The notes: generated by a model from the sequence alone, not told the origin. A stretch of 64,000 bases of DNA from Desulfobacterales bacterium (GCA_034520365.1 JAXHNP010000005.1:6474-70473), one strand, 5' to 3'; shown: positions 15,883 to 39,294, numbered from the stretch's first letter. Numbers and translations are program-made.

Positions 15883-17409
15883 TCAGCGACCGCTGCGAGA
15901 CAAAAAAAACGGCGCGTGATTGGAGGTAAAAAACAAGGGATCTTTTTTCAAAATCTCCCGGATGGGCCCCGGCCGCTTAAACTCCTTGACCAGAAACCGC
16001 CGCACCCGGCTGCGGTCCCAGCCGCGGGGGTGGACAAACTCCCGGTACAGGGACAAATCCCCGGGATAAAAATCCACGGTATCCAGGGCATCCGCCTCCG
16101 GGCTGCCCACGGGCAGATTGAAGATGGCCAGGTTTAAAAAATCGATGCAGTCCGCATGGGCCAGTATAAAGGATCGCGTCTGGCAAGCGGCTTCATAATC
16201 TTCGGCCGGCGTGCCGAAAAGTAGGTATCCGTAGATTAAAATGCCGGCTTCGCTGACGGTTTTTAACGCCCGGGATACGGTGTCAATGGATATCCCCTTA
16301 TTCAATGCATCCAACACATGCTGGGCGCCGGACTCGATGCCAAGCTTCAGCATCACACAGCCGGAATCTTTTAAGCCCCTGGCAAACGCCGGGTCGGTAA
16401 GATGATCGGTGATCCGGACGAACCCATACCAGGGCGCCCCGGGCGGATCAGCGATCAGGGCTTTTAAGAATGCCGGAGACAGGGCATTGTCCAGAAAATG
16501 GATGAGCGAGGGACGGGTTTCTTTTTGCAGCCGATTCAGATCGCTTCGGATGGCGGATCGATCAAAAGCCTGGTACCGGGTGTTTTCAAATTTTTCCGGG
16601 CAGAACCGGCATTTCTGCCAGTAGCAGCCGCGGGAGGCGGCATAAGGGAGCACCCGGCCGGGAGAGAGATACAAATTCATCGGGAAATCGGCATAGTCAA
16701 ACCCGGGCTGAGGCGCGGCCGGGGTCTCTGAAAATCCAGCCATGGAGAAAAGGCGCCCCTCTCCCGGCCCGCAGACCAGCTCATCTATTACTGAAGCAAA
16801 CGGGTTGTCAAAGCCTTTGACGGCCAACCACGAGGTTACCAGCCCGCCGCCCATAATAATGCGGATATTCGGCCAATGGTTTCTTATAAACCCCGCCATG
16901 GCGAATGCGCAGACCGCCTGGCTTATAAAGTTGACCGAAAAACCGACAATCCGGGGATGGCTCTTATCAATCAACTCGGGCAGGCGTTTTTTAAAAAAGG
17001 AATAAAAGGGGTTTTCGTGAAACCGGGCCGCCGCGTCCAGCAGATCTTTGCTCTTAACCGGCGAAAATCGGGCGTCCCCATAGTTTGCCAGGGTGATATG
17101 GCTGCCCGCGGCTTTTCCCGCCATCTGCAGCACCCGGTTGATATCCATGACCGCCCGCTTGTAACGGTCCAGGCTACGAGAGATTTCCGGTGATCGAAGC
17201 GCGGCCAGATTTTCAGTCACACGGGCCACCGCCCGGCGGGTCCAGGTATCCCGGGCAGCAACCGGCCGACCCAGGAGATCCAGCAAACCTTCCAGGTTGG
17301 CATCCCAAACCCGGCAGCCAATCCCCCGGGATCTTAACGCAAATGCCAGCCGGGCCGGGCCAGCCGGGGGTTCGCCCGGCTTGGCGACCGGCGGATGGAT
17401 CAGAAGCAT
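15883..17409 (-). CDS. B12-binding-domain radical SAM protein
   Basis: N-terminal cobalamin-binding-like domain and a Cys cluster RGCYWQKCRFC (16600-16626). A 3-nt gap to the amidase gene upstream suggests an operon. Confidence 0.75.
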   Translation of the reverse strand: MLLIHPPVAKPGEPPAGPARLAFALRSRGIGCRVWDANLEGLLDLLGRPVAARDTWTRRAVARVTENLAALRSPEISRSLDRYKRAVMDINRVLQMAGKAAGSHITLANYGDARFSPVKSKDLLDAAARFHENPFYSFFKKRLPELIDKSHPRIVGFSVNFISQAVCAFAMAGFIRNHWPNIRIIMGGGLVTSWLAVKGFDNPFASVIDELVCGPGEGRLFSMAGFSETPAAPQPGFDYADFPMNLYLSPGRVLPYAASRGCYWQKCRFCPEKFENTRYQAFDRSAIRSDLNRLQKETRPSLIHFLDNALSPAFLKALIADPPGAPWYGFVRITDHLTDPAFARGLKDSGCVMLKLGIESGAQHVLDALNKGISIDTVSRALKTVSEAGILIYGYLLFGTPAEDYEAACQTRSFILAHADCIDFLNLAIFNLPVGSPEADALDTVDFYPGDLSLYREFVHPRGWDRSRVRRFLVKEFKRPGPIREILKKDPLFFTSNHAPFFLSRSGR

Positions 17410-27080: not shown

Positions 27081-27998
27081 ATGAGGGCCATATACAAATT
27101 TGTGCTGATTCTATTTATATCACTGGCAATTGCCTTGCCGGGACAGAGCTATGCGGCCGGCACCTCGGATGCCTGTGCCACCAAATACCCCATAATTCTG
27201 GCCCACGGCACGGGCGGTGCGGCGGAGATGATGGGAATTGTGGATTACTGGTGGGGGATACCCGAGGCCCTGCGCAATGAAGGGGCGGAAGTGTATGTGA
27301 CCTCGGTCAACGGCATGGACGGAACCGATGATAAAGCCGAACAGTTCAAAAAGAAATTCTTCGAAATTAAAGCGGCCCTTGAAAAGGACCTGCCGACCGA
27401 GAGCGCCCCAAAATTCAATATTATCGGCCACTCCCACGGGGCCCTGTACACCCGGTATGCGATCAGCAACCTGGGAATTGCTGAAAATGTCGCCAGCTAC
27501 ACGAGCATTGCCGGTCCGCACCATGGGATGTTTCTGGCGGATGCCCTTGTTCAAGCAACACCGGAACTGATTCAACAGCTGACCGGCAAAACCCTGGATT
27601 TTGTTTACGCCTATTTTTTCGGCAATACCCAACCGGACTCGCTGGATAACGTCTATGACGTCACCCGGGCTCAGATGGACTTTTTCAATGACAATTGTCC
27701 CAATGATGAAAATATTTATTACCAGAGCTATGCCGCCCGGGTGAAGCTGACCTGCCCCAATCCTGTGCTGGAGCCCACATGGCTCTTTCTCTTATCCCAT
27801 GAAGGCCCCAATGACGGTCTGGTCAGCGTAGAAAGCGCCCAATGGGGCACATTCAAAGGATCAGAATCCGGAGCCTGGTGGAGCCCCGGATGTGACCACC
27901 TGGCCATTATCGGCCACCTGTTCGGCATGACCCCGGGATTCAACGCACCGGAATTTTACATCGACATTGTCAGTGAGCTGAAACGTAAAGGATTCTAA
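27081..27998 (+). CDS. Secreted triacylglycerol lipase (family I-like alpha/beta hydrolase)
   Basis: Signal peptide, oxyanion region PIILAHGTGG, nucleophile elbow GHSHG. AGGAG Shine-Dalgarno before the ATG. Confidence 0.85.
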   Translation: MRAIYKFVLILFISLAIALPGQSYAAGTSDACATKYPIILAHGTGGAAEMMGIVDYWWGIPEALRNEGAEVYVTSVNGMDGTDDKAEQFKKKFFEIKAALEKDLPTESAPKFNIIGHSHGALYTRYAISNLGIAENVASYTSIAGPHHGMFLADALVQATPELIQQLTGKTLDFVYAYFFGNTQPDSLDNVYDVTRAQMDFFNDNCPNDENIYYQSYAARVKLTCPNPVLEPTWLFLLSHEGPNDGLVSVESAQWGTFKGSESGAWWSPGCDHLAIIGHLFGMTPGFNAPEFYIDIVSELKRKGF

Positions 27999-28266
27999 AT
28001 CAACCTGCCTCTCCACGCTCCGTATCGCCCCAATCTCAATGCCATTAATACTTAAGGAGTAGTAATCCCGCCCCAATGACATACCCCGCTGCAATACCGG
28101 CAGAATTAATTGCCTTCAACTTCTCCAGCGAAAAACACTAGTTATTACCTGACAAAAATACCGTTGCCTTTTAGTATTGAATAACGATCAGAGTTTGTCA
28201 TTATACCCATGTTAGTTTCTGTAAACGTCGTTTAACAATTTTTTCATCATCTAAGGAGGTTGCGTA

Positions 28267-30021
28267 ATGGACGGCATCAGTGGCGCCTATCCCGAGTTTG
28301 TCGATTCCATTGACAGCTTTTCCGAACTGCTTCAATACCGGGCAAAAGATGCCCCGGACCGGCTTTTGTTCACCTACCTGGAAGACGGGGAGAATGAATC
28401 CGCGCAAATGACCTACCGGGATCTTGACCAAAAAGCCCGGGCGATTGCGGCCGAGCTTCTTTCCGTCTGCCGCCCGGGAGACCGGGCGCTTCTGCTGTAC
28501 CTGCCCGACCTGAACTATATCGCGGGTTTCATGGGATGCCTGTATGCCGGCATTATCGCCGTTCCCGCCTATCCGCCGGACCCCTCGCGCCTGGCCCAGA
28601 CACTTCCGAGATTAAAAGGAATTATTGAGGATTCCGGTGCAAAAATCGCGCTCAGCACCCAACTGGTGGTTGGCTTTGCCCAGGACCTTTTTGAAAAAGA
28701 GGCTGCCTTAAAAAACATTCAGTGGCTGGCAACCGACGACCTGCCGGCAGAGCCCGTATCTTCGTATGAATTGCCCGCACTCACCCCGGATTACCTGGCC
28801 TTTCTGCAATATACCTCCGGCTCCACCGGAATTCCTAAAGGGGTGATGGTCAGCCACGGCAATCTTCTGAAAAACGCCGCCCTGATTCAGGCCGGATTTG
28901 AGGATACGCCGGAGACTTTCGGTGTGTCCTGGCTGCCGCCCTATCATGACATGGGGCTGATCGGAGGCATCCTCCAGCCCATCTATCTCGGCGCGGGCAC
29001 CGTTTTGATGTCCCCCATGATGTTTCTTCAAAAACCCTTCCGCTGGCTTTCCGCCATTTCCAAATACCGCGCCACCACCAGCGGGGGGCCCAACTTTGCC
29101 TATGACCTGTGCGCAAGGAAGGTTACGCCTGAAGAGAAAAAACAGCTGGATTTAAGCTGCTGGCAACTGGCCTTCAACGGCGCCGAACCGGTCCGCGAAG
29201 AAACGCTGACCGCTTTTGCCGAGGCGTTTTCCGAATGCGGATTCAAAATGGAAGCGTTTTATCCCTGTTACGGAATGGCTGAAACGACCCTGTTTGTCGC
29301 CGGCGGCCAAAAAGGCGTCCGGCCGAGACAGACCGCAATTAACAGCAGCGCCCTGCAATGCCACCGGGCGGAAAAAAATCCGGAATCCGGCGATGCCAAA
29401 AAGACACTGGTCAGCAGCGGGCAGGCAAAATCACCGGAACAAATCATCATCGCAGACCCGGAAACCTTCAGGCGATGCCCGGATGGAGCGGTCGGAGAAA
29501 TCTGGGTGGCCGGTCCCAACGTGGCCCGGGGCTACTGGAATCAGCCCATCGCGACCGAAGAGACATTTCATGCCTATCTTGCCGACACCGGCGAAGGGCC
29601 GTTTCTGCGAACCGGGGATTTGGGATTTCTGGAAGGCGAAGATCTTTATGTAACCGGCCGGATAAAGGACCTGATCATTATCCGGGGGCGCAATTATTAC
29701 CCCCAGGATGTGGAGCTGATCGCCGAAAAAAGCCATACGGTGCTCCGCCCGGGATGCGGGGCGGCCTTTCCGGTGGATGTGGAAGGCGAAGAACGGCTGG
29801 CATTGGCCTATGAAATAAGAGACAAGGAAATCGGTCAGCAGGAAACAAATGAAATCATCAACGCGATTCATCAGGCCGTCCTTGATGCAGCGGCATTGAA
29901 TGTCTATGCCATCTGGCTTCTTCAGCCCCGAAGCATACCAAAGACCTCCAGCGGCAAACTCCGACGGCATGCCTGCCGGGAAGGCTATCTGAGCGATACC
30001 CTTGACGTGATTGCCAAATGG
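28267..30021 (+). other. PKS domain: fatty acyl-AMP ligase (FAAL) loading domain (approximate limits)
   Basis: Adenylation motifs FLQYTSGSTGIPKGVMVSH, YGMAETT, TGDLG, and the PKTSSGKLRR-like end. Confidence 0.8.
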
Positions 30022-33000
30022 CGGGAATCCGATGGCCTGAAATCCACGGTGCCGGATCAGGCGCCCCAGCATCAAAGCCGGCCCCATGCCCCGGCCGGCA
30101 ATCTCCGGACAGCGGAAGCCATTGAAAAATGGCTGAAAGAACGGCTGGCAAAAACCCTGCGGATTCTGCCGGAAGAAATTGATATTCGAACACCGTTTTC
30201 CCGCTACGGCCTGGACTCCGTCGAGGCGGTGGGTCTTGCCGGCGAACTTGAAACCCAGTTGAACAGACGTCTGCCGCCCACTCTGGCCTATGATTATCCG
30301 ACCATTGAAGCGCTTTCCAAACACCTGGCGGAGGGCCCGGAAACGGCTCCAGACCGCCAACAGCAGCCGGATTCCCATGCCGCGGCGAATCCGAGCATCG
30401 CCATTATCGGCATGGGCTGCCGCTTTCCCGGCGCGGACGGTCCGAAGGCCTTCTGGGATCTGATCCTCAATAAAATCAACGCGGTCACCGAAGTGCCGGC
30501 CGACCGCTGGGACCGGGAGGCGTTTTATGCTGAACAGGCCGGCACACCGGGCAAAATGAACACCCGGTGGGGCGGATTTTTAACGGATGTGGATCAATTT
30601 GATCCGAAATTCTTCGGCATTTCGCCGAGAGAGGCCACCCACATGGACCCCCAGCAGCGGCTTTTGCTGGAAACCGCCTGGGAAGCCCTGGAAAATGCCG
30701 CTCTTCCCGAAGAAAAAGTGGATGACACCCTGACCGGCGTATTTATCGGTATCAGCGGCAGCGACTACTCCCGGAATAATTTTAACACGCCGGCCGCCAT
30801 GGATGCCTATGCCGGCCCGGGAAACGCCCTTTGTATCGCCGCCAACCGGATTTCCTACTGGTTAAACCTCCATGGGCCCAGCTGGGCGGTGGACACCGCC
30901 TGTTCATCCTCCCTGGTCGCGCTTCACCAAGCCTGCCGGAGCCTTCGCACCGGCGAATGCGACATGGCCATTGCCGGGGGCGCCAACATGATTTTAAGCC
31001 CCCAGATTACCGTGAGTTTTTCGCAGGCCGGCATGATGGCGCCGGATGGCCGGTGCAAAAGCTTTGACGCGGATGCTGACGGATATGTGCGGGGCGAGGG
31101 CTGCGGGGTGGTGATCCTGAAGCGGTTTTCAGACGCGCTCGCAGATGGCGACGAAATCCTGGCGGTCATCCGCGGAACCGCCGTCAACCAGGACGGCCGC
31201 AGCAACAGCCTGACCGCGCCCAGCGGGCCGGCCCAGCAGCGCGTACTTAAAACCGCTCTTGCCGATGCGGGCGTTGACGCCCGCGAACTCGGCTATATCG
31301 AAGCCCACGGCACGGGAACCGCCATCGGCGATCCGATTGAACTGGGGAGCCTGAAAAACGTCGTTGCCAATGGTAGAAGCCCTGAGGATAGATGCTGGAT
31401 CGGATCCGTAAAATCAAACATCGGCCACCTTGAGGCCGCCTCCGGCACCGCCAGCTTGGCCAAGGCGGTGATGAGCATTCAAAACGGAATCATCCCGCCC
31501 AACCTGAATTACCGGACCCCCACCCCCCATGTCCCCCTTGACGATTCGCCGATTGACGTCCCCACCGAGAACCAATCATGGCCGGCGGACAGGCGCCGTT
31601 TGGCCGGAATCAGCAGCTTCGGCTTCGGCGGAACCAATGCCCACGTTATCATTGAAGAGGCCCCGATCCGGCGCAAGACAAAAACCGCCGCAGTACGCCC
31701 GTTTCACCTTTTAACCCTTTCGGCAAAAACCGATGCCGCGCTGCTTGAACTGGCCGACCGATACAGCCGCAGACTTTCCAAGCATCCGGATACATCTATC
31801 GGGGATTTATGCTATTCGGCAAACACCGGCCGAACCCATTTTGCCAACCGATTGGCCATAGGGGCTGCAACTGCCGGTGAATTAAAAGACAAACTGGCGG
31901 CTGCGGCCGCCGGCAATGCCGATACCGGCATCCTCTCCGGAAGCGCCGCCAAAAACAGCTCTTTGTCCGTGGTTTTTCTGTTTACCGGCCAGGGGGCCCA
32001 GTATCCCGGCATGGCCAAATCGCTTTTTGGCTCCCAGCCGGTCTTCCGGGAACATATCACGGCATGCGACGCCCTGCTTCGCCCGTATCTTGACGGATCG
32101 CTGATGGATGTAATTTTCGCCTCGTCTGAGGCGGCCGAAGAAATCCATCAGACCGGCTATACCCAGCCGGCGCTGTTTGCCGTTGAATACAGCCTGGCCC
32201 GGCTCTGGGAGTCCTGGGGGATCTTTCCCGCGGCCGTAATGGGGCACAGTGTGGGGGAATACGTGGCAGCCTGCCTTGCCGGCGTGTTTAGCCTTGAAGA
32301 CGGTTTGCGATTGATCGCGGCAAGGGGCCGGCTGATGCAGAGTTTGCCGGAAAACGGGGCGATGGCCGCCGTCATGGCAACCCGCGAGGCGGTTTCCCCG
32401 ATTCTGGAAAAATATGCGGACGATGTTTGCGTCGCTGCCTATAACGGGCCGAAAAGCATGGTTATTTCAGGCGTACAAAAACGCGTGGAAGCCGTTGTTC
32501 GTGAACTTTCCGCAGAAGGCATCCGATCTAAGCCCCTGTCCGTGTCACACGCGTTCCATTCTCCGCTGATGGCGCCGATTTTGGATGAATTCTCTGAAAC
32601 AGCAGCCGATATACAGTACGGTCCGCCGCAGATGCCATTGATTTCAAACCGGACGGGACGGCCCGTGGATGAAAACATCGCTTCGCCGCAATACTGGCGC
32701 CGCCATATCATGGAGCCGGTACAGTTCGCCCGGAGCATGGAGACCCTTTATGAATCCGGGCACCGGATGTTTCTCGAATGCGGGCCACATCCCGTGCTGC
32801 TGGGAATGGGGAGACAATGCATTCCGGACAAAGACTGCCTGTGGCTGCCAAGCCTCCGGCGGGGGCGTGCGGACTGGCAGCAGATGCTGACCAGCCTTGG
32901 CGAACTCTATGTGCGCGGCGCACGGATCAATTGGGACCAGGTGGACCAGGCCCATGCCGAACGGCGGGTGAATCTGCCGAATTACCCGTTTCAACGCAAA

Positions 33001-36000
33001 CGATACTGGCTTGAAGCCCGGCAGAATCCCGCCTCCGCCGCCCCGGACCATCAAGCCGACACCGTGCACCCCCTCCTGGGAAGGCAGGTCCCCACCGCTT
33101 TGTTAAAGAAAGAAGAAAGCCTTTACGAGTCCGTCATCAGTCCGGACAATCCGCCCTATCTCAAGGATCACAGGATCTTTGACCAGGTGATCTTTCCGGC
33201 GGCCGCTTATCTTGAAATGGGACTTTCCGCAGGCGCCCGGGCGCTTGACACCCAGTTCCTGTGCCTGGAAAACGTCTCGTTCCACCAGGCCTTGTTTCTG
33301 GACGAGAATGCCCCGCGGACGCTGCAGGTAGTGTTATCAGAAAATCCGGATGCCGCCGGCTACGGGTTCACCATCTATAGCCGTTCGCAACAAAACGGAG
33401 ATAATGCGCATTCGGATCAAGGCGACTGGATGCTTCATGCCGAGGGCGAAGTCCGCGAACTTCAGAGGGATGAATCAAACGAAAATATCGAAAACTGGGG
33501 ACAGGTCAAAACCGCTTTTACCGAGGAGGTCCCGATCCCCGCATTTTACTCCCGGCTGCGGCAACAGGGATTAAACTACGGCATCAATTTCCGGGGGATT
33601 GAACAATTATGGCGTAAAAACGGCAATGCCCTGGGCAAAATCGGGCTGCCGGCAAAACATCAGCAGCCGCCCGGCAGTTATATCTTCCCGCCCGCTCTTC
33701 TGGATGCCTGCTTTCAGTCCCTGGGCGGTGCCATGAATGGCGATACCGAGGCGACCCTTTTGCCGGTCGGTATAAAGCGGATGAATGTGCGCAAAATAAA
33801 CAGCGACGGTCTGTGGTGCCGGACGGGGCAAATTGCGGAAGCGGAGAAAAACAGTTTCAAAGCGGATCTCGATGTTCTGGATGACAGCGGCAATACCGCG
33901 GCCCGGGTCGAGGGGTTGACCCTGCGCAAGGTAGCACCCGAGATGCTGTTTACCGGCAGCCGGCCGAATACGGAGAACTGGCTCTATGAATTAAGCTGGA
34001 CAGGGCAGGAAAACCCGCTTGGTGAATCCCCCTTTGCCGAAGCGCCCGGCTTTTGGCTGCTTTTTGCAGACAGCACCCAATCGGTGCGAGAAGTTGCAGA
34101 CCGCTTGGAAACACGGGGCGCCGCATGCCTTTGCGTGACCCCGGGTAAAAATTTCAAGTACGATGCAAAGCGCTGTCACGCTACTGTTAATCCGGAATCA
34201 CCGGAGGATTTTAATCAGCTTCTTAGCCGGGCCGGCAAGCAGGAACTGCCGATTCAGGGCATTGTTTATATGTGGCAGGCCAAACCGGCTTCCGATGTTT
34301 CCGAAATTTTGACCCAAAACCCCCTGCTTGGCTGCGACAGTCTGCTGTACCTGGTCCGCTCACTGGCAACCACAGCCCATTCTCCCCGGCTCTGGATCAT
34401 CACACGCGGCAGCCAGGCCCCTGACGCACAAATGGACGCCCAAACGGACGCCCAAACGGAAGTTCCGGATCCCGGCCAGGCCCCCCTATGGGGACTGGGG
34501 CGGGTGATCGCCCTTGAACATCCGTCTCTTCACTGCACCCGGATTGACCTGGATCCAAATGAAAAATCCACAGATTCCGAAACCCTGGTCAACGCGCTGT
34601 GGCACCCGGATGCAGAGGACCAGATCGCTTTTCGCGGCGGCAGCCGTTTCGCGGCCCGCCTAACAGAATACCATAAAAATGACGGAAATAAAGCGGACAG
34701 CCTGTCTATTCCGGAATCCGCGTCGTATCGGCTGGCCACCCGTCAATACGGTATTCTGGAAAATCTGTACCTGGCGCCGCAGGACCGAGCCCAACCCGGG
34801 CCGGAGGAAGTCGAAATCCGGGTCTGCTCGGCCGGCTTAAACTTCCGGGATGTGTTAAATGCGCTTGGCATGTTGCAGCAGGCCGCCGAAGAACTCGGCA
34901 TTGAATCCGCGGAAGCCCTGCCGTTCGGCGGGGAATGCACCGGCGTTGTCGCCGCGGTGGGCAGGAATGTCAAACGGTTCAAGCCCGGGGATGAAGTCAT
35001 CGGGGCCTTTGCCGTAGGCAGCCTTGCCCGGTTTGTCTGTGTGGATCAGGCGTATGTGGCCTTAAAGCCGGAGAATATAACCTTTGACGAAGCCGCCACC
35101 CTTCCCGTCACGTTCCTGACGGCATGGTACGGCTTGTACCGGCTGGCCGGATTAAAGTCCGGGGAGAGCGTTCTGATTCATTCCGCCGCCGGCGGGGTGG
35201 GCCAGGCCGCCATCCAGCTGGCCCAAAAGGCGGGCGCCGAAATATTTGCAACAGCCAGCCCGGGCAAATGGGAGTTCTTAAAATCCAGGGGCGTAGCGCA
35301 CGTAATGAATTCCCGCACCCTTGATTTTGCCGATGAAATCCAAACCCTGACAAACGGCAGGGGCGTTGATGTGGTATTTAACAGTCTGAACGGGGACTTC
35401 ATTGAAAAATCGCTTTCCGTTGCCGCCGAAGGCGCGCGGTTCGTGGAGATCGGCAAAATCGGTATCTGGGATGAGGCCCGGATGAACCGGGCGCGTCCGG
35501 ATGTCGCCTATTATCCGTTCGACCTGATTGAAGTTGCCGGAAAACGCCCGGAAGCAGTCACTGACATGCTATCCGAAATAATGGCCCGTATAACCGAAGA
35601 ACAACTCAATGCATTGCCCTGCAAGGTGTATCCCCTGGAAAACACGGTAAACGCCTTCCGGTTCATGGCCCAGGCCAAGCACATCGGAAAAGTCGTCATC
35701 TCGCTTGCCCCCAAAGATGTTGAGTCAGAAAAAGCAATGGTTCATGATACCGCCTGCTACCTGATTACCGGCGGCTATGGCGCCATCGGTCTTCAGGCCG
35801 CCCGTTGGCTTGCGGAAAAAGGGGCGCGGCATCTGGTGCTTATCGGCCGCAGCGGGCCATCACCAGAAGCGGAAAAGGAAATCGAAGGATTGACCCAGGC
35901 CGGGGTGCACGTTTTCCAGGCCCGGGCGGATGTCTCCCGCCGCGAGGATCTCTACGGTGTTCTGGCATCGATAAAAACAAATATGCCGCCGCTTAAGGGA

Positions 36001-37611
36001 ATCATCCATGCCGCCGGCCTGCTGGAAGACGGCATGCTGGCCAACCTGTCCAGGGATGCATTTGACCGTGTGATGGCGCCGAAAGTGGCCGGCGCCTGGC
36101 ACTTGCATCAGCTTACCCGCGAGATGGGACTCGATTTTTTTGTTCTTTTCTCATCCGCGGCAGCCCTTCTGGGGTCACCGGGCCAGGGCAACTATGCCGC
36201 AGCCAATGCCTTCATGGATGCACTGGCCCATTATCGGAAAAGCCAGGGACGGCCCGCATTAAGCGTGAATTGGGGCCCCTGGGCCGGGGCCGGGATGGCG
36301 GCGGATAGCTCCGGAGCGGCATTTTCAGGAATGGATAGAATCCCCCCGGACAATGGATTGGACATACTGGACCGGCTGCTTGCCGAGGATGCGGTCCAGG
36401 CCGGTGTCCTGCCCATCAATTGGCCCGAGTTTCTGGACCGGTTTCCCGAAAATCTGACGCCGCCGGTTTTCAAAAATTTCACCAACCGCCGAAAGCAAAA
36501 GAGCACCGGCAACTCCGCCGTTGTTCAGGAAATATCCGAGGCCCCGCCGGCGGCGCGCCGGGATATCATCGCCCGGTACCTGACGGATCGCGTATCCCAC
36601 GTGCTGGGTCTTTCCGATGATGTCCCGCTTGACCCTGAACAGCCGTTAAAGGAAACCGGCCTGGATTCATTGATGGCGGTTGAACTCAACAATATAATCC
36701 AGACCGATCTCGATGTGGGCCTGACAGCTGAAAATTTTATGGAGAACCCGAGCATCGCCATGCTCTCGGAAACCATTCACCAGCTTCTCGAGTCCGCGGG
36801 CCGGTTCAAATCCGATGCGCCCAAAGAAAATGATCAAACAACACCGCACGGGCAGACGGCTTCAACCCCCGAATCAAACGGCTGGCTGGCCTACCGCAAG
36901 GAGAAACCGGACGCCCTGATCAACCTCTTCTGCTTCCACCATATGGGGGGCGCGGCCTCCCTGTTTCAGGGCTGGCCGGAGGAATTGGCGGATGCCATTG
37001 ATGTGTGCCCGGTACAGCTCCCGGGACGGGAGGGGAGACGGCATGAAAAAACCTTCGACAGGTTCGACCATCTAATCGAGGCCCTGCTGGAGATGATTCA
37101 ACCCCACCTCGACCGGCCTTTTGCATTTTTCGGCCACAGTATGGGGACATGGATCGCCTATGAACTCACTCATGCCATCAGACAAAAGATCGGCCAATCC
37201 CCCGTCCACCTTTTTGCTGCCGCTATGCCGCCGCCTTGCGAAAACGGGGCATTTATGAAGAATAGACCCATTGATGAATCCTTGATGCCGCACATGGAAA
37301 TTCCCGAGCCGTTGCGGGGTGATGATACTTTCATGAACGAATGGCTGAACCTTTTTAATGCCGATGCCGGATTGTTTCAAACCTACCACTGCCAGGTTAA
37401 GCCGGCGCTTGACTGCCCGATAACCGCTTTTGGGGGGGCATCGGATGAACTGGTGAGCCGTGCGGATCTTTCCGCCTGGCACCAGTATACCTCGGATACC
37501 TTCAGGCTTCAGCTTATGCCCGGCCAGCACATGTTTCCCGTCGGAAGCAGAAACCGCTTAATGGCGGCGATTAAGCAGGATTTGACGCCGTTTCTCTATT
37601 CCGGGCATTAA
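28267..37611 (+). CDS. Type I polyketide/fatty-acid megasynthase: FAAL-ACP-KS-AT-DH-ER-KR-ACP-TE (3114 aa)
   Basis: All domains were identified from motifs in frame. AMP-binding YTSGSTGIPKG (about 28810). ACP1 GLDS Ser 30217-30219. KS DTACSSS Cys 30901-30903 plus EAHGTGT and KSNIGH. AT GHSVG Ser 32248-32250 and HAFH 32548-32559. DH HxxxGxxxxP His 33169-33171. ER HSAAGGVGQAA (about 35179). KR TGGYGAIG (35767-35790) and catalytic Tyr 36193-36195. ACP2 GLDS Ser 36667-36669. TE GHSMG Ser 37138-37140. Strong AAGGAGG Shine-Dalgarno. Confidence 0.95.
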   Translation: MDGISGAYPEFVDSIDSFSELLQYRAKDAPDRLLFTYLEDGENESAQMTYRDLDQKARAIAAELLSVCRPGDRALLLYLPDLNYIAGFMGCLYAGIIAVPAYPPDPSRLAQTLPRLKGIIEDSGAKIALSTQLVVGFAQDLFEKEAALKNIQWLATDDLPAEPVSSYELPALTPDYLAFLQYTSGSTGIPKGVMVSHGNLLKNAALIQAGFEDTPETFGVSWLPPYHDMGLIGGILQPIYLGAGTVLMSPMMFLQKPFRWLSAISKYRATTSGGPNFAYDLCARKVTPEEKKQLDLSCWQLAFNGAEPVREETLTAFAEAFSECGFKMEAFYPCYGMAETTLFVAGGQKGVRPRQTAINSSALQCHRAEKNPESGDAKKTLVSSGQAKSPEQIIIADPETFRRCPDGAVGEIWVAGPNVARGYWNQPIATEETFHAYLADTGEGPFLRTGDLGFLEGEDLYVTGRIKDLIIIRGRNYYPQDVELIAEKSHTVLRPGCGAAFPVDVEGEERLALAYEIRDKEIGQQETNEIINAIHQAVLDAAALNVYAIWLLQPRSIPKTSSGKLRRHACREGYLSDTLDVIAKWRESDGLKSTVPDQAPQHQSRPHAPAGNLRTAEAIEKWLKERLAKTLRILPEEIDIRTPFSRYGLDSVEAVGLAGELETQLNRRLPPTLAYDYPTIEALSKHLAEGPETAPDRQQQPDSHAAANPSIAIIGMGCRFPGADGPKAFWDLILNKINAVTEVPADRWDREAFYAEQAGTPGKMNTRWGGFLTDVDQFDPKFFGISPREATHMDPQQRLLLETAWEALENAALPEEKVDDTLTGVFIGISGSDYSRNNFNTPAAMDAYAGPGNALCIAANRISYWLNLHGPSWAVDTACSSSLVALHQACRSLRTGECDMAIAGGANMILSPQITVSFSQAGMMAPDGRCKSFDADADGYVRGEGCGVVILKRFSDALADGDEILAVIRGTAVNQDGRSNSLTAPSGPAQQRVLKTALADAGVDARELGYIEAHGTGTAIGDPIELGSLKNVVANGRSPEDRCWIGSVKSNIGHLEAASGTASLAKAVMSIQNGIIPPNLNYRTPTPHVPLDDSPIDVPTENQSWPADRRRLAGISSFGFGGTNAHVIIEEAPIRRKTKTAAVRPFHLLTLSAKTDAALLELADRYSRRLSKHPDTSIGDLCYSANTGRTHFANRLAIGAATAGELKDKLAAAAAGNADTGILSGSAAKNSSLSVVFLFTGQGAQYPGMAKSLFGSQPVFREHITACDALLRPYLDGSLMDVIFASSEAAEEIHQTGYTQPALFAVEYSLARLWESWGIFPAAVMGHSVGEYVAACLAGVFSLEDGLRLIAARGRLMQSLPENGAMAAVMATREAVSPILEKYADDVCVAAYNGPKSMVISGVQKRVEAVVRELSAEGIRSKPLSVSHAFHSPLMAPILDEFSETAADIQYGPPQMPLISNRTGRPVDENIASPQYWRRHIMEPVQFARSMETLYESGHRMFLECGPHPVLLGMGRQCIPDKDCLWLPSLRRGRADWQQMLTSLGELYVRGARINWDQVDQAHAERRVNLPNYPFQRKRYWLEARQNPASAAPDHQADTVHPLLGRQVPTALLKKEESLYESVISPDNPPYLKDHRIFDQVIFPAAAYLEMGLSAGARALDTQFLCLENVSFHQALFLDENAPRTLQVVLSENPDAAGYGFTIYSRSQQNGDNAHSDQGDWMLHAEGEVRELQRDESNENIENWGQVKTAFTEEVPIPAFYSRLRQQGLNYGINFRGIEQLWRKNGNALGKIGLPAKHQQPPGSYIFPPALLDACFQSLGGAMNGDTEATLLPVGIKRMNVRKINSDGLWCRTGQIAEAEKNSFKADLDVLDDSGNTAARVEGLTLRKVAPEMLFTGSRPNTENWLYELSWTGQENPLGESPFAEAPGFWLLFADSTQSVREVADRLETRGAACLCVTPGKNFKYDAKRCHATVNPESPEDFNQLLSRAGKQELPIQGIVYMWQAKPASDVSEILTQNPLLGCDSLLYLVRSLATTAHSPRLWIITRGSQAPDAQMDAQTDAQTEVPDPGQAPLWGLGRVIALEHPSLHCTRIDLDPNEKSTDSETLVNALWHPDAEDQIAFRGGSRFAARLTEYHKNDGNKADSLSIPESASYRLATRQYGILENLYLAPQDRAQPGPEEVEIRVCSAGLNFRDVLNALGMLQQAAEELGIESAEALPFGGECTGVVAAVGRNVKRFKPGDEVIGAFAVGSLARFVCVDQAYVALKPENITFDEAATLPVTFLTAWYGLYRLAGLKSGESVLIHSAAGGVGQAAIQLAQKAGAEIFATASPGKWEFLKSRGVAHVMNSRTLDFADEIQTLTNGRGVDVVFNSLNGDFIEKSLSVAAEGARFVEIGKIGIWDEARMNRARPDVAYYPFDLIEVAGKRPEAVTDMLSEIMARITEEQLNALPCKVYPLENTVNAFRFMAQAKHIGKVVISLAPKDVESEKAMVHDTACYLITGGYGAIGLQAARWLAEKGARHLVLIGRSGPSPEAEKEIEGLTQAGVHVFQARADVSRREDLYGVLASIKTNMPPLKGIIHAAGLLEDGMLANLSRDAFDRVMAPKVAGAWHLHQLTREMGLDFFVLFSSAAALLGSPGQGNYAAANAFMDALAHYRKSQGRPALSVNWGPWAGAGMAADSSGAAFSGMDRIPPDNGLDILDRLLAEDAVQAGVLPINWPEFLDRFPENLTPPVFKNFTNRRKQKSTGNSAVVQEISEAPPAARRDIIARYLTDRVSHVLGLSDDVPLDPEQPLKETGLDSLMAVELNNIIQTDLDVGLTAENFMENPSIAMLSETIHQLLESAGRFKSDAPKENDQTTPHGQTASTPESNGWLAYRKEKPDALINLFCFHHMGGAASLFQGWPEELADAIDVCPVQLPGREGRRHEKTFDRFDHLIEALLEMIQPHLDRPFAFFGHSMGTWIAYELTHAIRQKIGQSPVHLFAAAMPPPCENGAFMKNRPIDESLMPHMEIPEPLRGDDTFMNEWLNLFNADAGLFQTYHCQVKPALDCPITAFGGASDELVSRADLSAWHQYTSDTFRLQLMPGQHMFPVGSRNRLMAAIKQDLTPFLYSGH
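30118..30352 (+). other. PKS domain: ACP1 (approximate limits)
   Basis: RYGLDSVEAVGL phosphopantetheine site. Confidence 0.8.
30397..31665 (+). other. PKS domain: ketosynthase
   Basis: IAIIGMGCRFPG start, C-H-H triad motifs, GTNAHVIIEE end. Confidence 0.9.
31969..32990 (+). other. PKS domain: acyltransferase (malonyl-type HAFH motif)
   Basis: FLFTGQGAQYPGM, GHSVGEY, SHAFHS. Confidence 0.85.
33067..33950 (+). other. PKS domain: dehydratase (approximate limits)
   Basis: HPLLG...LKDHRIFDQVIFPAAAYLEM. Confidence 0.75.
34740..35715 (+). other. PKS domain: enoylreductase (MDR type)
   Basis: EVEIRVCSAGLNFRDV, LIHSAAGGVGQAAIQLAQ, IGKVVISL. Confidence 0.85.
35758..36290 (+). other. PKS domain: ketoreductase (catalytic subdomain)
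   Basis: YLITGGYGAIGL, SSAAALLGSPGQGNYAAANAF. Confidence 0.85.
36559..36787 (+). other. PKS domain: ACP2 (approximate limits)
   Basis: ETGLDSLMAVEL. Confidence 0.8.
36900..37608 (+). other. PKS domain: C-terminal thioesterase (type II/GrsT-like alpha/beta hydrolase)
   Basis: LFCFHHMGGAASLF, FFGHSMGTWIAYE, and a C-terminal GQHMF His region. Confidence 0.8.
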
Positions 37612-37619
37612 AAAGCAGC

Positions 37620-38231
37620 CTACGCCCGGGCCTGGGAAAAACTTTTGGGCACGCCTTCATAGGGGGTTCGCTTCTTGGATTTGAGCGTCCTGGGATCCCG
37701 CATGGTTTTAAGAATTTCGATGCTGTCCTTTAAGCCTTTATGAAGCCTTGCCATATCAATAGCCATAGCGGTCATATTAGCCACCGCCTGGACAAAATTC
37801 ACGTCATCCATGTCAAAATCCACCGGCTCCGCGGTATACACCCGAAGCGCGCCGATAATCCGGTCGGCAGTGGTCATGGGCACTGAAAGTATGGACGCAA
37901 TCCCCTCCTTTTTAGCCTCATCCGGATACTGAATCCGCGGATCATCCGATACATCGCCGATGGCCACCGGACCTTCGCTCAAAGATTCGGCAATGGAATG
38001 CATGGCGCTGACCGGGCCTTTGTTGAGATACTCCTTGCTAAGACCAAAGGATGCGGCGATTTCCAGTTCATTGGTATGCCGATTGATCAGAAAAATGCTG
38101 CATCCCTTGACATTCAGCGCATGGGCAATGCTTTCTGCAGTCAACAGCACCACTTCCTCCGGGTCCCGGGAATGGGAGATGGAATTGGTGATTTTGAGCA
38201 GGGTTTCGTAATTGACGACTTGTTTTTTCAT
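37620..38231 (-). CDS. Stand-alone GAF domain protein
   Basis: A single GAF fold (LLKITNSISHSRDPEEVV...GALRVYTAEP) with no output domain. Start trimmed to ATG 38231 (MKKQ), preceded by GGAGG. Convergent with the PKS; the stops are 8 nt apart. Confidence 0.75.
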   Translation of the reverse strand: MKKQVVNYETLLKITNSISHSRDPEEVVLLTAESIAHALNVKGCSIFLINRHTNELEIAASFGLSKEYLNKGPVSAMHSIAESLSEGPVAIGDVSDDPRIQYPDEAKKEGIASILSVPMTTADRIIGALRVYTAEPVDFDMDDVNFVQAVANMTAMAIDMARLHKGLKDSIEILKTMRDPRTLKSKKRTPYEGVPKSFSQARA

Positions 38232-38424
38232 GGTGTGACCTCCTTGTGGACGGTTGCAATTTATGGCTTGAGCCATAAACCGGATAAAAATCTTTCATGT
38301 GGCAGCCGCTGGGCCAATACGGATCAGAACAAAACAGAACCAACCGGAAACCCTCAGCCGGTTAAACAGAAGAAGCAAAGAAAGCTTCGGATTCAGAATC
38401 CGGAGAAGAAGAGCTGATTGAGAA

Positions 38425-39127: not shown

Positions 39128-39294
39128 AACCGAGCCGATTTTCAACCTTAAATCAATGTGGCATTGACATTATACTCAATGTCGTGAACTGGAGAAGGTC
39201 GGGATGAGGGTAAAAATGGCTTAAGCGAATGGTTTTGACATTATACCTGAATACGCCCTCAATTTAGGGGCAAATATTAATGTGTGAGGCGCGG

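Follow-up and report, generated by a model that had tools for sequence, protein, structure and literature searches.

The 64,000-nucleotide stretch analysed here (the window; positions are counted from its first letter) comes from a Desulfobacterales bacterium (GCA_034520365.1, JAXHNP010000005.1:6474-70473), and carries at 28267-37611, on the plus strand, one complete gene that encodes a polyketide synthase (PKS) of type I with 3114 amino acids. From its domains, we read the enzyme as a fatty-acid-primed synthase resembling a fatty acid synthase (FAS), which would take in a free long-chain fatty acid and, after at least one round of elongation, give out a longer saturated acid; this is the reading that we favour, with modest confidence. 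By sequence comparison, the enzyme joins a front end like that of olefin synthase (Ols), a reductive core of the kind found in mycocerosic acid synthase (MAS) and FAS, and release by a type II-like thioesterase, and is a member of none of these families. The gene and its predicted domains are as follows.

28267-37611, +, complete PKS gene, 3114 aa; orthologues with the same layout are 93%, 74%, 62-64% and 58-59% identical
28309-30036, +, fatty acyl-AMP ligase (FAAL) domain, aa 15-590; 629 bits and 51% identity to 7R7E, end to end; dN/dS 0.13-0.20
within the FAAL, +, AMP-binding region (aa 23-424) and DIP2-like C-terminal subdomain (aa 468-583), from Pfam
30127-30327, +, loading acyl carrier protein (ACP1), aa 621-687, Ser651; Pfam PP-binding
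30394-31512, +, ketosynthase (KS), aa 710-1082; C879, H1014, H1054
31972-32922, +, acyltransferase (AT), malonyl-type, aa 1236-1552; GHSVGE (S1328), HAFH 1428-1431
33067-33936, +, dehydratase (DH), aa 1601-1890; H1635, D1813; Pfam PKS_DH_N and PS-DH; dN/dS 0.13-0.19
aa 1931-2046, +, psiKR, from Pfam
34798-35700, +, enoylreductase (ER), MDR-type, aa 2178-2478; ADH_N / ADH_zinc_N; HSAAGGVG 2305-2312; dN/dS 0.14-0.16
35752-36285, +, ketoreductase (KR), B-type, aa 2496-2673; K2606, Y2643, N2647
36562-36795, +, elongation ACP (ACP2), aa 2766-2843, Ser2801
36925-37563, +, C-terminal type II-like thioesterase (TE), aa 2887-3099; Pfam PF00975; S2958, D3060, H3088

The open reading frame (ORF) runs for 9.3 kb from an ATG start with no internal stop, and Pfam assigns to this one polypeptide the order FAAL-ACP-KS-AT-DH-psiKR-ER-KR-ACP-TE, with all matches far above their cut-offs. 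An earlier, sequence-only reading of the window had proposed the same order in one 3114-aa ORF, with a complete reductive loop and no sulfotransferase; the Pfam search agrees, adds the psiKR between DH and ER, matches DH, ER and KR alike, and finds neither a sulfotransferase nor a methyltransferase domain anywhere in the ORF.

Catalytic motifs were compared in an alignment of ten proteins with this layout, seven from Desulfobacterales and three others (P0123, P0124 and P0153), the TE region being aligned separately. All ten keep the FAAL P-loop TSGSTG (183-188), the carrier serines of both ACPs, the KS triad, the GHSxG serine of the AT, the catalytic His and Asp of the DH, the NADPH motif of the ER, the KR motif GGYGAIG with its Lys, Tyr and Asn and the B-type L-E-D (LxD) motif, and the Ser-Asp-His triad of the TE. 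The departures are few: the LDS motif of ACP1 reads GLDS in nine proteins and DLDS in P0153; the HAFH of the AT is present in nine and replaced by VASH in the alphaproteobacterial protein; and in the Desulfobacterales clade the DH deviates at non-catalytic positions, with HxxxGxxxxP reading HxxxD/E/N and YGP reading YG(I/L/M), the catalytic residues being retained. The sequence-only reading, which held all catalytic motifs to be intact and the AT to be malonyl-type on its HAFH, is borne out on both points, including the active sites of DH, ER and KR, and from the established HAFH/GHSxG rule we infer malonyl as the extender. When the codons are compared pairwise with those of four orthologues, all catalytic and carrier domains have dN/dS values of 0.09-0.36, which indicates purifying selection, and the value is 0.17-0.22 for the whole gene, whose frame is intact in seven genomes; a value near 1 is reached in the 35-residue linker between ACP2 and TE, in the closest pair only. 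DH and ER are thus confirmed by Pfam, keep their catalytic residues and are under constraint.

The N-terminal domain has as its best solved match 7R7E, the FAAL domain of the olefin synthase of PCC 7002 (PMC11837247), with 629 bits and 51% identity over 565 aligned residues, interrupted by four gaps of 1-3 residues. Its top 15 solved-structure matches are all FAALs, among them the Legionella and E. coli FAALs, FadD23, FadD28 and FadD32. NCBIfam FAAL models score 370-430 bits as opposed to 148 bits for a typical fatty acyl-CoA ligase (FACL) model; the FAAL scores lie below the whole-protein cut-offs because the FAAL is here one domain of a larger protein. On these comparisons the domain is a FAAL and not an acyl-CoA ligase, with FAALs as its nearest relatives from one end to the other and in the FAAL-specific insertion region too, and the fused ACP1 suggests transfer of the acyl group to a carrier protein without ligation to CoA.

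The best solved match of the KS-AT is CurL of curacin biosynthesis (4mz0), with 977 bits as opposed to 589 bits for the KS-AT of MAS, and the reducing module as a whole (aa 710-2837) aligns with MAS (9d2z) at 1139 bits, the best full-length solved match. The top NCBIfam model is NF045894 PKS_plus_SDR, followed, among those that span the reducing module (711-2824), by Pks2 (NF041183), which scores 1351 bits against an equivalog cut-off of 2400; Pks13 likewise scores 867 against a cut-off of 2100. FAS structures match only the KS-AT-DH part, at about 600 bits.

The fused TE belongs, by sequence and by predicted fold, to the type II-like class (RifR/RedJ/TesA type) and to neither the Ols/CurM nor the DEBS type. 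Its strongest solved-structure sequence matches (E <= 1e-12) are RifR (E = 7e-38), RedJ, BorB, human TE2, ClbQ, TesA, YbtT and SrfAD, and no TE of the DEBS/Pik type is matched at E < 1e-3 among solved structures. An AlphaFold model built from the ten orthologues (pLDDT 85) has only type II TEs as its top 23 Foldseek matches, with a TM of about 0.8 for the best, and the TE of Pks13 is absent from both the solved-structure sequence matches and the Foldseek matches. As opposed to this, the Ols-type TE of the sister protein in the tree below (L024_3) matches Abhydrolase_1 and is preceded by a sulfotransferase domain. Type II TEs are normally discrete, free-standing proteins, and here one is fused to the C terminus of the synthase. 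Its hydrolytic class favours plain hydrolysis over transfer of the product to an unusual acceptor, which the sequence-only reading had suggested as the alternative to iterative use, and its position in cis under strong constraint (dN/dS 0.13-0.17) fits a role in release.

To place the front half of the protein, a quick maximum-likelihood tree (IQ-TREE) was computed for the FAAL-to-AT region of 33 FAAL-primed synthases, a limited taxon sample with one Ols-type representative. All seven proteins from Desulfobacterales fall into a single clade (support 100), and its sister is that representative, an Elainellaceae protein with the layout FAAL-ACP-KS-AT-KR-ACP-ST-TE, where ST is a sulfotransferase (SH-aLRT 96, or 94 without two long branches). 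The sequence-only reading had likened the loading logic to cyanobacterial olefin synthase and to mycobacterial FadD/Pks pairs. Both resemblances are borne out, and with the FAAL identity and the tree position taken together the link to Ols is stronger than that reading supposed. The three other proteins with the domain order of the window are placed elsewhere in the tree: P0123 and P0124 beside a Planctomycetota protein, and being probably from Planctomycetota themselves given their neighbouring genes and tree position, and P0153, from an alphaproteobacterial MAG (metagenome-assembled genome). A single origin of the layout, for the FAAL-to-AT half, is rejected when all ten proteins are forced into one clade (AU test, p = 2e-5), which indicates that the layout was assembled more than once, at least in its front half. 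In cyanobacteria, FAAL-ACP-KS-AT-DH-ER-KR-ACP without a TE occurs as the first module of longer assembly lines. Many of the closest FAAL-primed PKSs have a tandem pair of FAAL domains before the loading ACP (P0003, P0004, P0006, P0007, P0008, P0011 and P0012) or, in P0002, three in tandem, an arrangement of which we know no discussion.

Following established PKS and FAS biochemistry, the order of steps would be this. The FAAL would adenylate a free long-chain fatty acid and load it onto ACP1, from which the chain would pass to the KS; the AT would put malonyl on ACP2, and the KS would condense the two. The B-type KR, the DH and the ER would then fully reduce the new beta-carbon, and the TE, acting in cis, would hydrolyse the saturated acyl-ACP2 and so set free a longer fatty acid. 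Both carriers would be activated to the holo form by the one Sfp-like phosphopantetheinyl transferase (PPTase) of the window's own genome (G000), a protein of 191 aa encoded elsewhere, on contig C6 (G000:C6:479662-480237; L100:1249-1824). This gene is the sole PF01648 match in the whole genome, a search that found no separate AcpS-type enzyme, so that the PKS may share its PPTase with fatty acid synthesis.

A fatty acid starter is suggested by the closeness of the FAAL to that of Ols, for which experiments have shown the substrate to be C18 acid set free from membrane lipids (PMC11730487), and hydrolytic release by the placing of the TE in a class that includes the acyl-ACP-releasing RedJ, TesA and human TE2. 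The gene stands at no fewer than four different loci across Desulfobacterales MAGs, either alone or with a PPTase gene only, which follows it directly at two of them (L001 and L004). With its own conserved promoter region, this points to an enzyme that needs no dedicated partner. What is conserved as a mobile unit is promoter and PKS, with or without the PPTase, and such an enzyme would have to use common metabolites and release its own product.

Several points weigh against this reading. A free saturated fatty acid is an odd end product for a 340-kDa enzyme, and many type II TEs edit rather than release. Iteration in particular is disfavoured by the KS-AT, nearer to the modular CurL than to the iterative MAS, and by a sister that is the single-pass Ols. 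The substrate range of a FAAL, moreover, is not readable from sequence (PMC11837247, section 4.2). As to the number of rounds, we lean slightly towards more than one, giving a very-long-chain saturated acid, because the product of just one C2 addition would be within reach of the cell's ordinary fatty acid synthesis; in addition, fully reducing single-module bacterial synthases (MAS-like, SgaA-type and Sup-type) are generally iterative. In its most specific form, which we put forward tentatively and think rather doubtful, the gene would encode an iterative 'portable elongase' that takes C14-C18 primers through several fully reducing rounds to C22+ acids, with the cis TE setting chain length. 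The same general reading has a strict single-pass form, possible though on balance unlikely, in which a particular free fatty acid gains a single malonyl unit and a C(n+2) acid is released; the starter might then be one that FAS II does not elongate, for instance a branched, hydroxylated or exogenous acid. The sister relationship of the FAAL-to-AT half and the modular character of the KS-AT, counted above against iteration, speak for this form, as does the pair of separate loading and elongation ACPs, the usual layout of a loading-plus-one-module line. The secreted lipase encoded directly upstream in G000 and G008 could supply free fatty acids to such an enzyme; it is, however, absent from the other PKS loci, and what a cell would gain from one saturated C2 addition is hard to see, quite apart from the iterative habit of comparable synthases.

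The remaining readings move the product or the starter elsewhere. The TE might mainly edit or keep house, with the acyl chain passing from ACP2 to an acyltransferase encoded at another locus and ending in a membrane or outer-membrane lipid, as with MAS and PapA5 or in the sulfolipid pathway. The often editing character of the TE class would suit this, and the same domain order is found beside genes for an MMPL transporter, a sulfotransferase and a hydrolase (L102 and L103) or for a PlsC-like acyltransferase (L101), both suggesting complex lipids. Against it, no acyltransferase, transporter or sulfotransferase is conserved beside the gene across the seven Desulfobacterales loci, the own genome has only weak matches, of about 25% identity, to the partner genes of L101-L103, and the constrained TE in cis fits release; we consider such a transfer improbable. 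That the FAAL-like domain activates a functionalised or non-fatty-acid starter on the way to a specialised signalling or bioactive metabolite seems to us quite improbable: there are known cases of unusual acids being loaded by a FAAL-ACP didomain (AmbG; PMC11837247) and the patchy distribution, in four of the nine genomes of the window's genus, is typical of secondary metabolism, but the nearest FAAL is the C18-activating one of Ols, with only the short gaps noted above, tailoring genes are lacking and full reduction would erase functionality. To the idea of an inactive relic that is no longer expressed we give almost no credence; the PPTase gene is not adjacent in the own genome, yet the 9.3-kb frame is uninterrupted, its motifs are intact and under purifying selection, seven orthologous frames are intact and the promoter block is conserved.

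Compared with known systems, the predicted fatty-acid elongating synthase resembles in plan the Ols (Picosynechococcus sp. PCC 7002)/CurM type, likewise a single polypeptide with FAAL-ACP loading and one KS-AT(malonyl) module. The Ols/CurM type has a KR only and retains the beta-hydroxyl, whereas the window protein has intact DH and ER; it places a sulfotransferase, absent here, before a decarboxylating TE of the Abhydrolase_1 type, as opposed to the PF00975 type II-like TE of the window; and Ols yields a terminal alkene where an acid would be expected here. MAS, Pks2 and Pks5, served in trans by FadD28 and FadD23, share fatty acid priming and a fully reducing KS-AT-DH-psiKR-ER-KR-ACP. They differ in their trans FAAL, methylmalonyl AT and off-loading by trans acyltransferases, where the window protein has a FAAL and loading ACP in cis, a malonyl AT and a cis TE; its score below the Pks2 equivalog cut-off and its KS-AT, nearer to cyanobacterial modular ones, set it further apart. 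Animal FAS I (KS-MAT-DH-psiME-psiKR-ER-KR-ACP-TE) has the same order of condensing, modifying, carrier and TE parts and makes a free saturated acid, as the window protein would, but is primed with acetyl through its MAT instead of with a preformed fatty acid through a FAAL-ACP, and the window TE is closest to the discrete TE II class, with human TE2 (4xjv) as one match. In Pks13 with FadD32, too, the acyl chain goes from the FAAL to an N-terminal ACP and on to the KS, and the PKS polypeptide ends in a TE; but Pks13 lacks a reductive loop, a long carboxyacyl chain is what its AT loads, and trehalose is the acceptor to which its TE passes the product. MicC, of micacocidin biosynthesis, offers an earlier case of iterative use of one FAAL-ACP-primed PKS module. 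By description only, it is set apart by partial reduction and an aromatic alkylsalicylate product that feeds a nonribosomal peptide synthetase (NRPS). MicC is listed among FAAL-PKS fusions in a review (PMC11837247), and neither that 2025 FAAL review nor our literature searches contain a characterised FAAL-ACP-KS-AT-DH-ER-KR-ACP-TE protein.

The layout is thus rare and uncharacterised, yet made of well-known parts, and would come as little surprise to a specialist. A close characterised homologue, which could have explained the product by itself as the sequence-only reading had allowed, did not turn up in the homologue, solved-structure or literature searches. In a set of 5.8 billion clustered proteins, the layout is seen in only about eight clusters at 90% identity, and orthologues at the identities listed above come only from uncultured Desulfobacterales MAGs and metagenome contigs, where public annotation names them 'SDR family oxidoreductase' or 'AMP-binding protein'. 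In its own genome, the ORF is the only type I PKS at E <= 1e-50. Its third-position GC content (GC3) of 0.655 is typical of the genome (mean 0.632 +/- 0.082) and gives no sign of recent import; recent horizontal transfer is therefore not supported by composition.

If the favoured reading is right, one gene together with a PPTase would turn ordinary free fatty acids into longer saturated ones, a compact part for lipid engineering. The enzyme would then be a natural counterpart to olefin synthase, with a common front end and a different back end, and an example of an assembly-line module that reverted to a FAS-like enzyme by exchange of ST-TE for DH-ER and a type II TE. If it is also iterative, uncultured marine Desulfobacterales would make C22+ saturated acids, and very-long-chain fatty acid biomarkers might then also stem from anaerobic marine bacteria; long-chain n-alkanoic acids in sediments are usually attributed to plant waxes. 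As an orphan enzyme with a product that is plausible from sequence, it is of value chiefly because it gives expression work a well-defined target.

Upstream of the gene, a consensus scan picks out a putative promoter, and a short repeated element lies downstream of it.

28149-28177, +, putative sigma-70-type promoter, CTGACA-17 nt-TAGTAT, about 90 nt upstream of the start codon
28195-28207, +, leader- or operator-like 13-mer TTGTCATTATACC, downstream of the putative promoter

The hexamers coincide with invariant columns (CTG..A and TAG.AT) in an alignment of seven orthologue upstream regions from four genomic contexts, and a sigma-70-type promoter function is probable. The 13-mer is kept upstream of the PKS in G000, G008, G004 and L003, and partly in L004, and in the upstream block that travels with the gene a conserved TTGTCATTATAC element stands downstream of the putative promoter. 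In degenerate form (TTGWCATTATACY), the 13-mer has five copies in the 4.33-Mb genome as opposed to about 0.5 expected. Two copies are intragenic, and the three intergenic ones all lie in the window, at 28195-28207 and, in the divergent region between the DUF2177 and CHI-like genes, at 39164-39176 and 39235-39247. The copy on the CHI side is present in the PKS-less G001 and absent in G008, which bears on whether the shared 13-mer might speak for joint regulation of the PKS and the CHI operon.

In the window, the PKS belongs to a variable segment, with a core radical-SAM gene (15883-17409) on one side and a core GAF gene (37620-38276) on the other. These two genes are immediate neighbours in the congeners G002 and G005, which lack the PKS, and this marks about 20 kb (amidase, defence genes, lipase and PKS) as variable. 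Here the segment 15883-38276 holds an amidase, DUF3800 with an unknown gene, RadC, a complete type I restriction-modification system, the lipase and the PKS, and in G004 an amidase, RadC, an hsdS remnant and the PKS, with the lipase absent. The GAF-only gene is convergent with the PKS, their stops being 8 nt apart (37611-37620) with no terminator-like hairpin between them, and the two transcripts would be predicted to overlap as antisense.

A biosynthetic gene cluster around the PKS was considered and rejected, no neighbour being tied to it by phyletic pattern. The GAF gene is core in all ten genomes checked, with or without the PKS; the DUF2177, CHI-like, MFS_2 and DUF1295 genes are also found in the PKS-less G003, G005 and G007, and MFS_2 is missing from the PKS-bearing G006 assembly. 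The gene at 27081-27998 encodes a secreted family I-type lipase with a signal peptide and a GHSHG nucleophile motif, an extra paralogue that shares 56% identity with a second copy, located at C6:1007823, from a lipase family widespread in this bacterial family. As a dedicated partner it is not supported, since it adjoins the PKS only in G000 and G008. At loci in other genera the PKS stands beside an NAD_binding_4 gene (L001), a DAO gene (L002) or a lactamase_B gene (L004); of these neighbours, the ones at L001 and L002 are core genes, which the own genome has elsewhere, on contig C7. In L001, an LPG_synthase_C-like (DUF2156) gene and the NAD_binding_4 reductase gene form a pair (L001:5653-9659; G000:C7:652241-654622) with 65-67% identity between genomes. 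There the pair sits between a sulfotransferase gene and the PKS, and may hint at fatty alcohol or sulfated lipid chemistry in that organism.

The proteins of the same order from outside the Desulfobacterales have richer surroundings. L101 (8609-19168), from the alphaproteobacterial MAG, encodes the synthase with the methylmalonyl-type AT motif VASH directly downstream of the PlsC-like acyltransferase; genes for an O-methyltransferase and an outer-membrane efflux protein are close by. The metagenome contigs L102 (4360-25828) and L103 (8269-26325), probably from Planctomycetota, both carry a sulfotransferase, the FAAL-PKS-TE, a PPTase, an alpha/beta-hydrolase, an MMPL transporter and a GH3-family acyl-acid amido synthetase, and the genes common to the two are 37-59% identical. 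This set recalls the mycobacterial sulfolipid-1 locus (Pks2, FadD23, MmpL8 and Stf0), and by that analogy its product may be an exported sulfated lipid.

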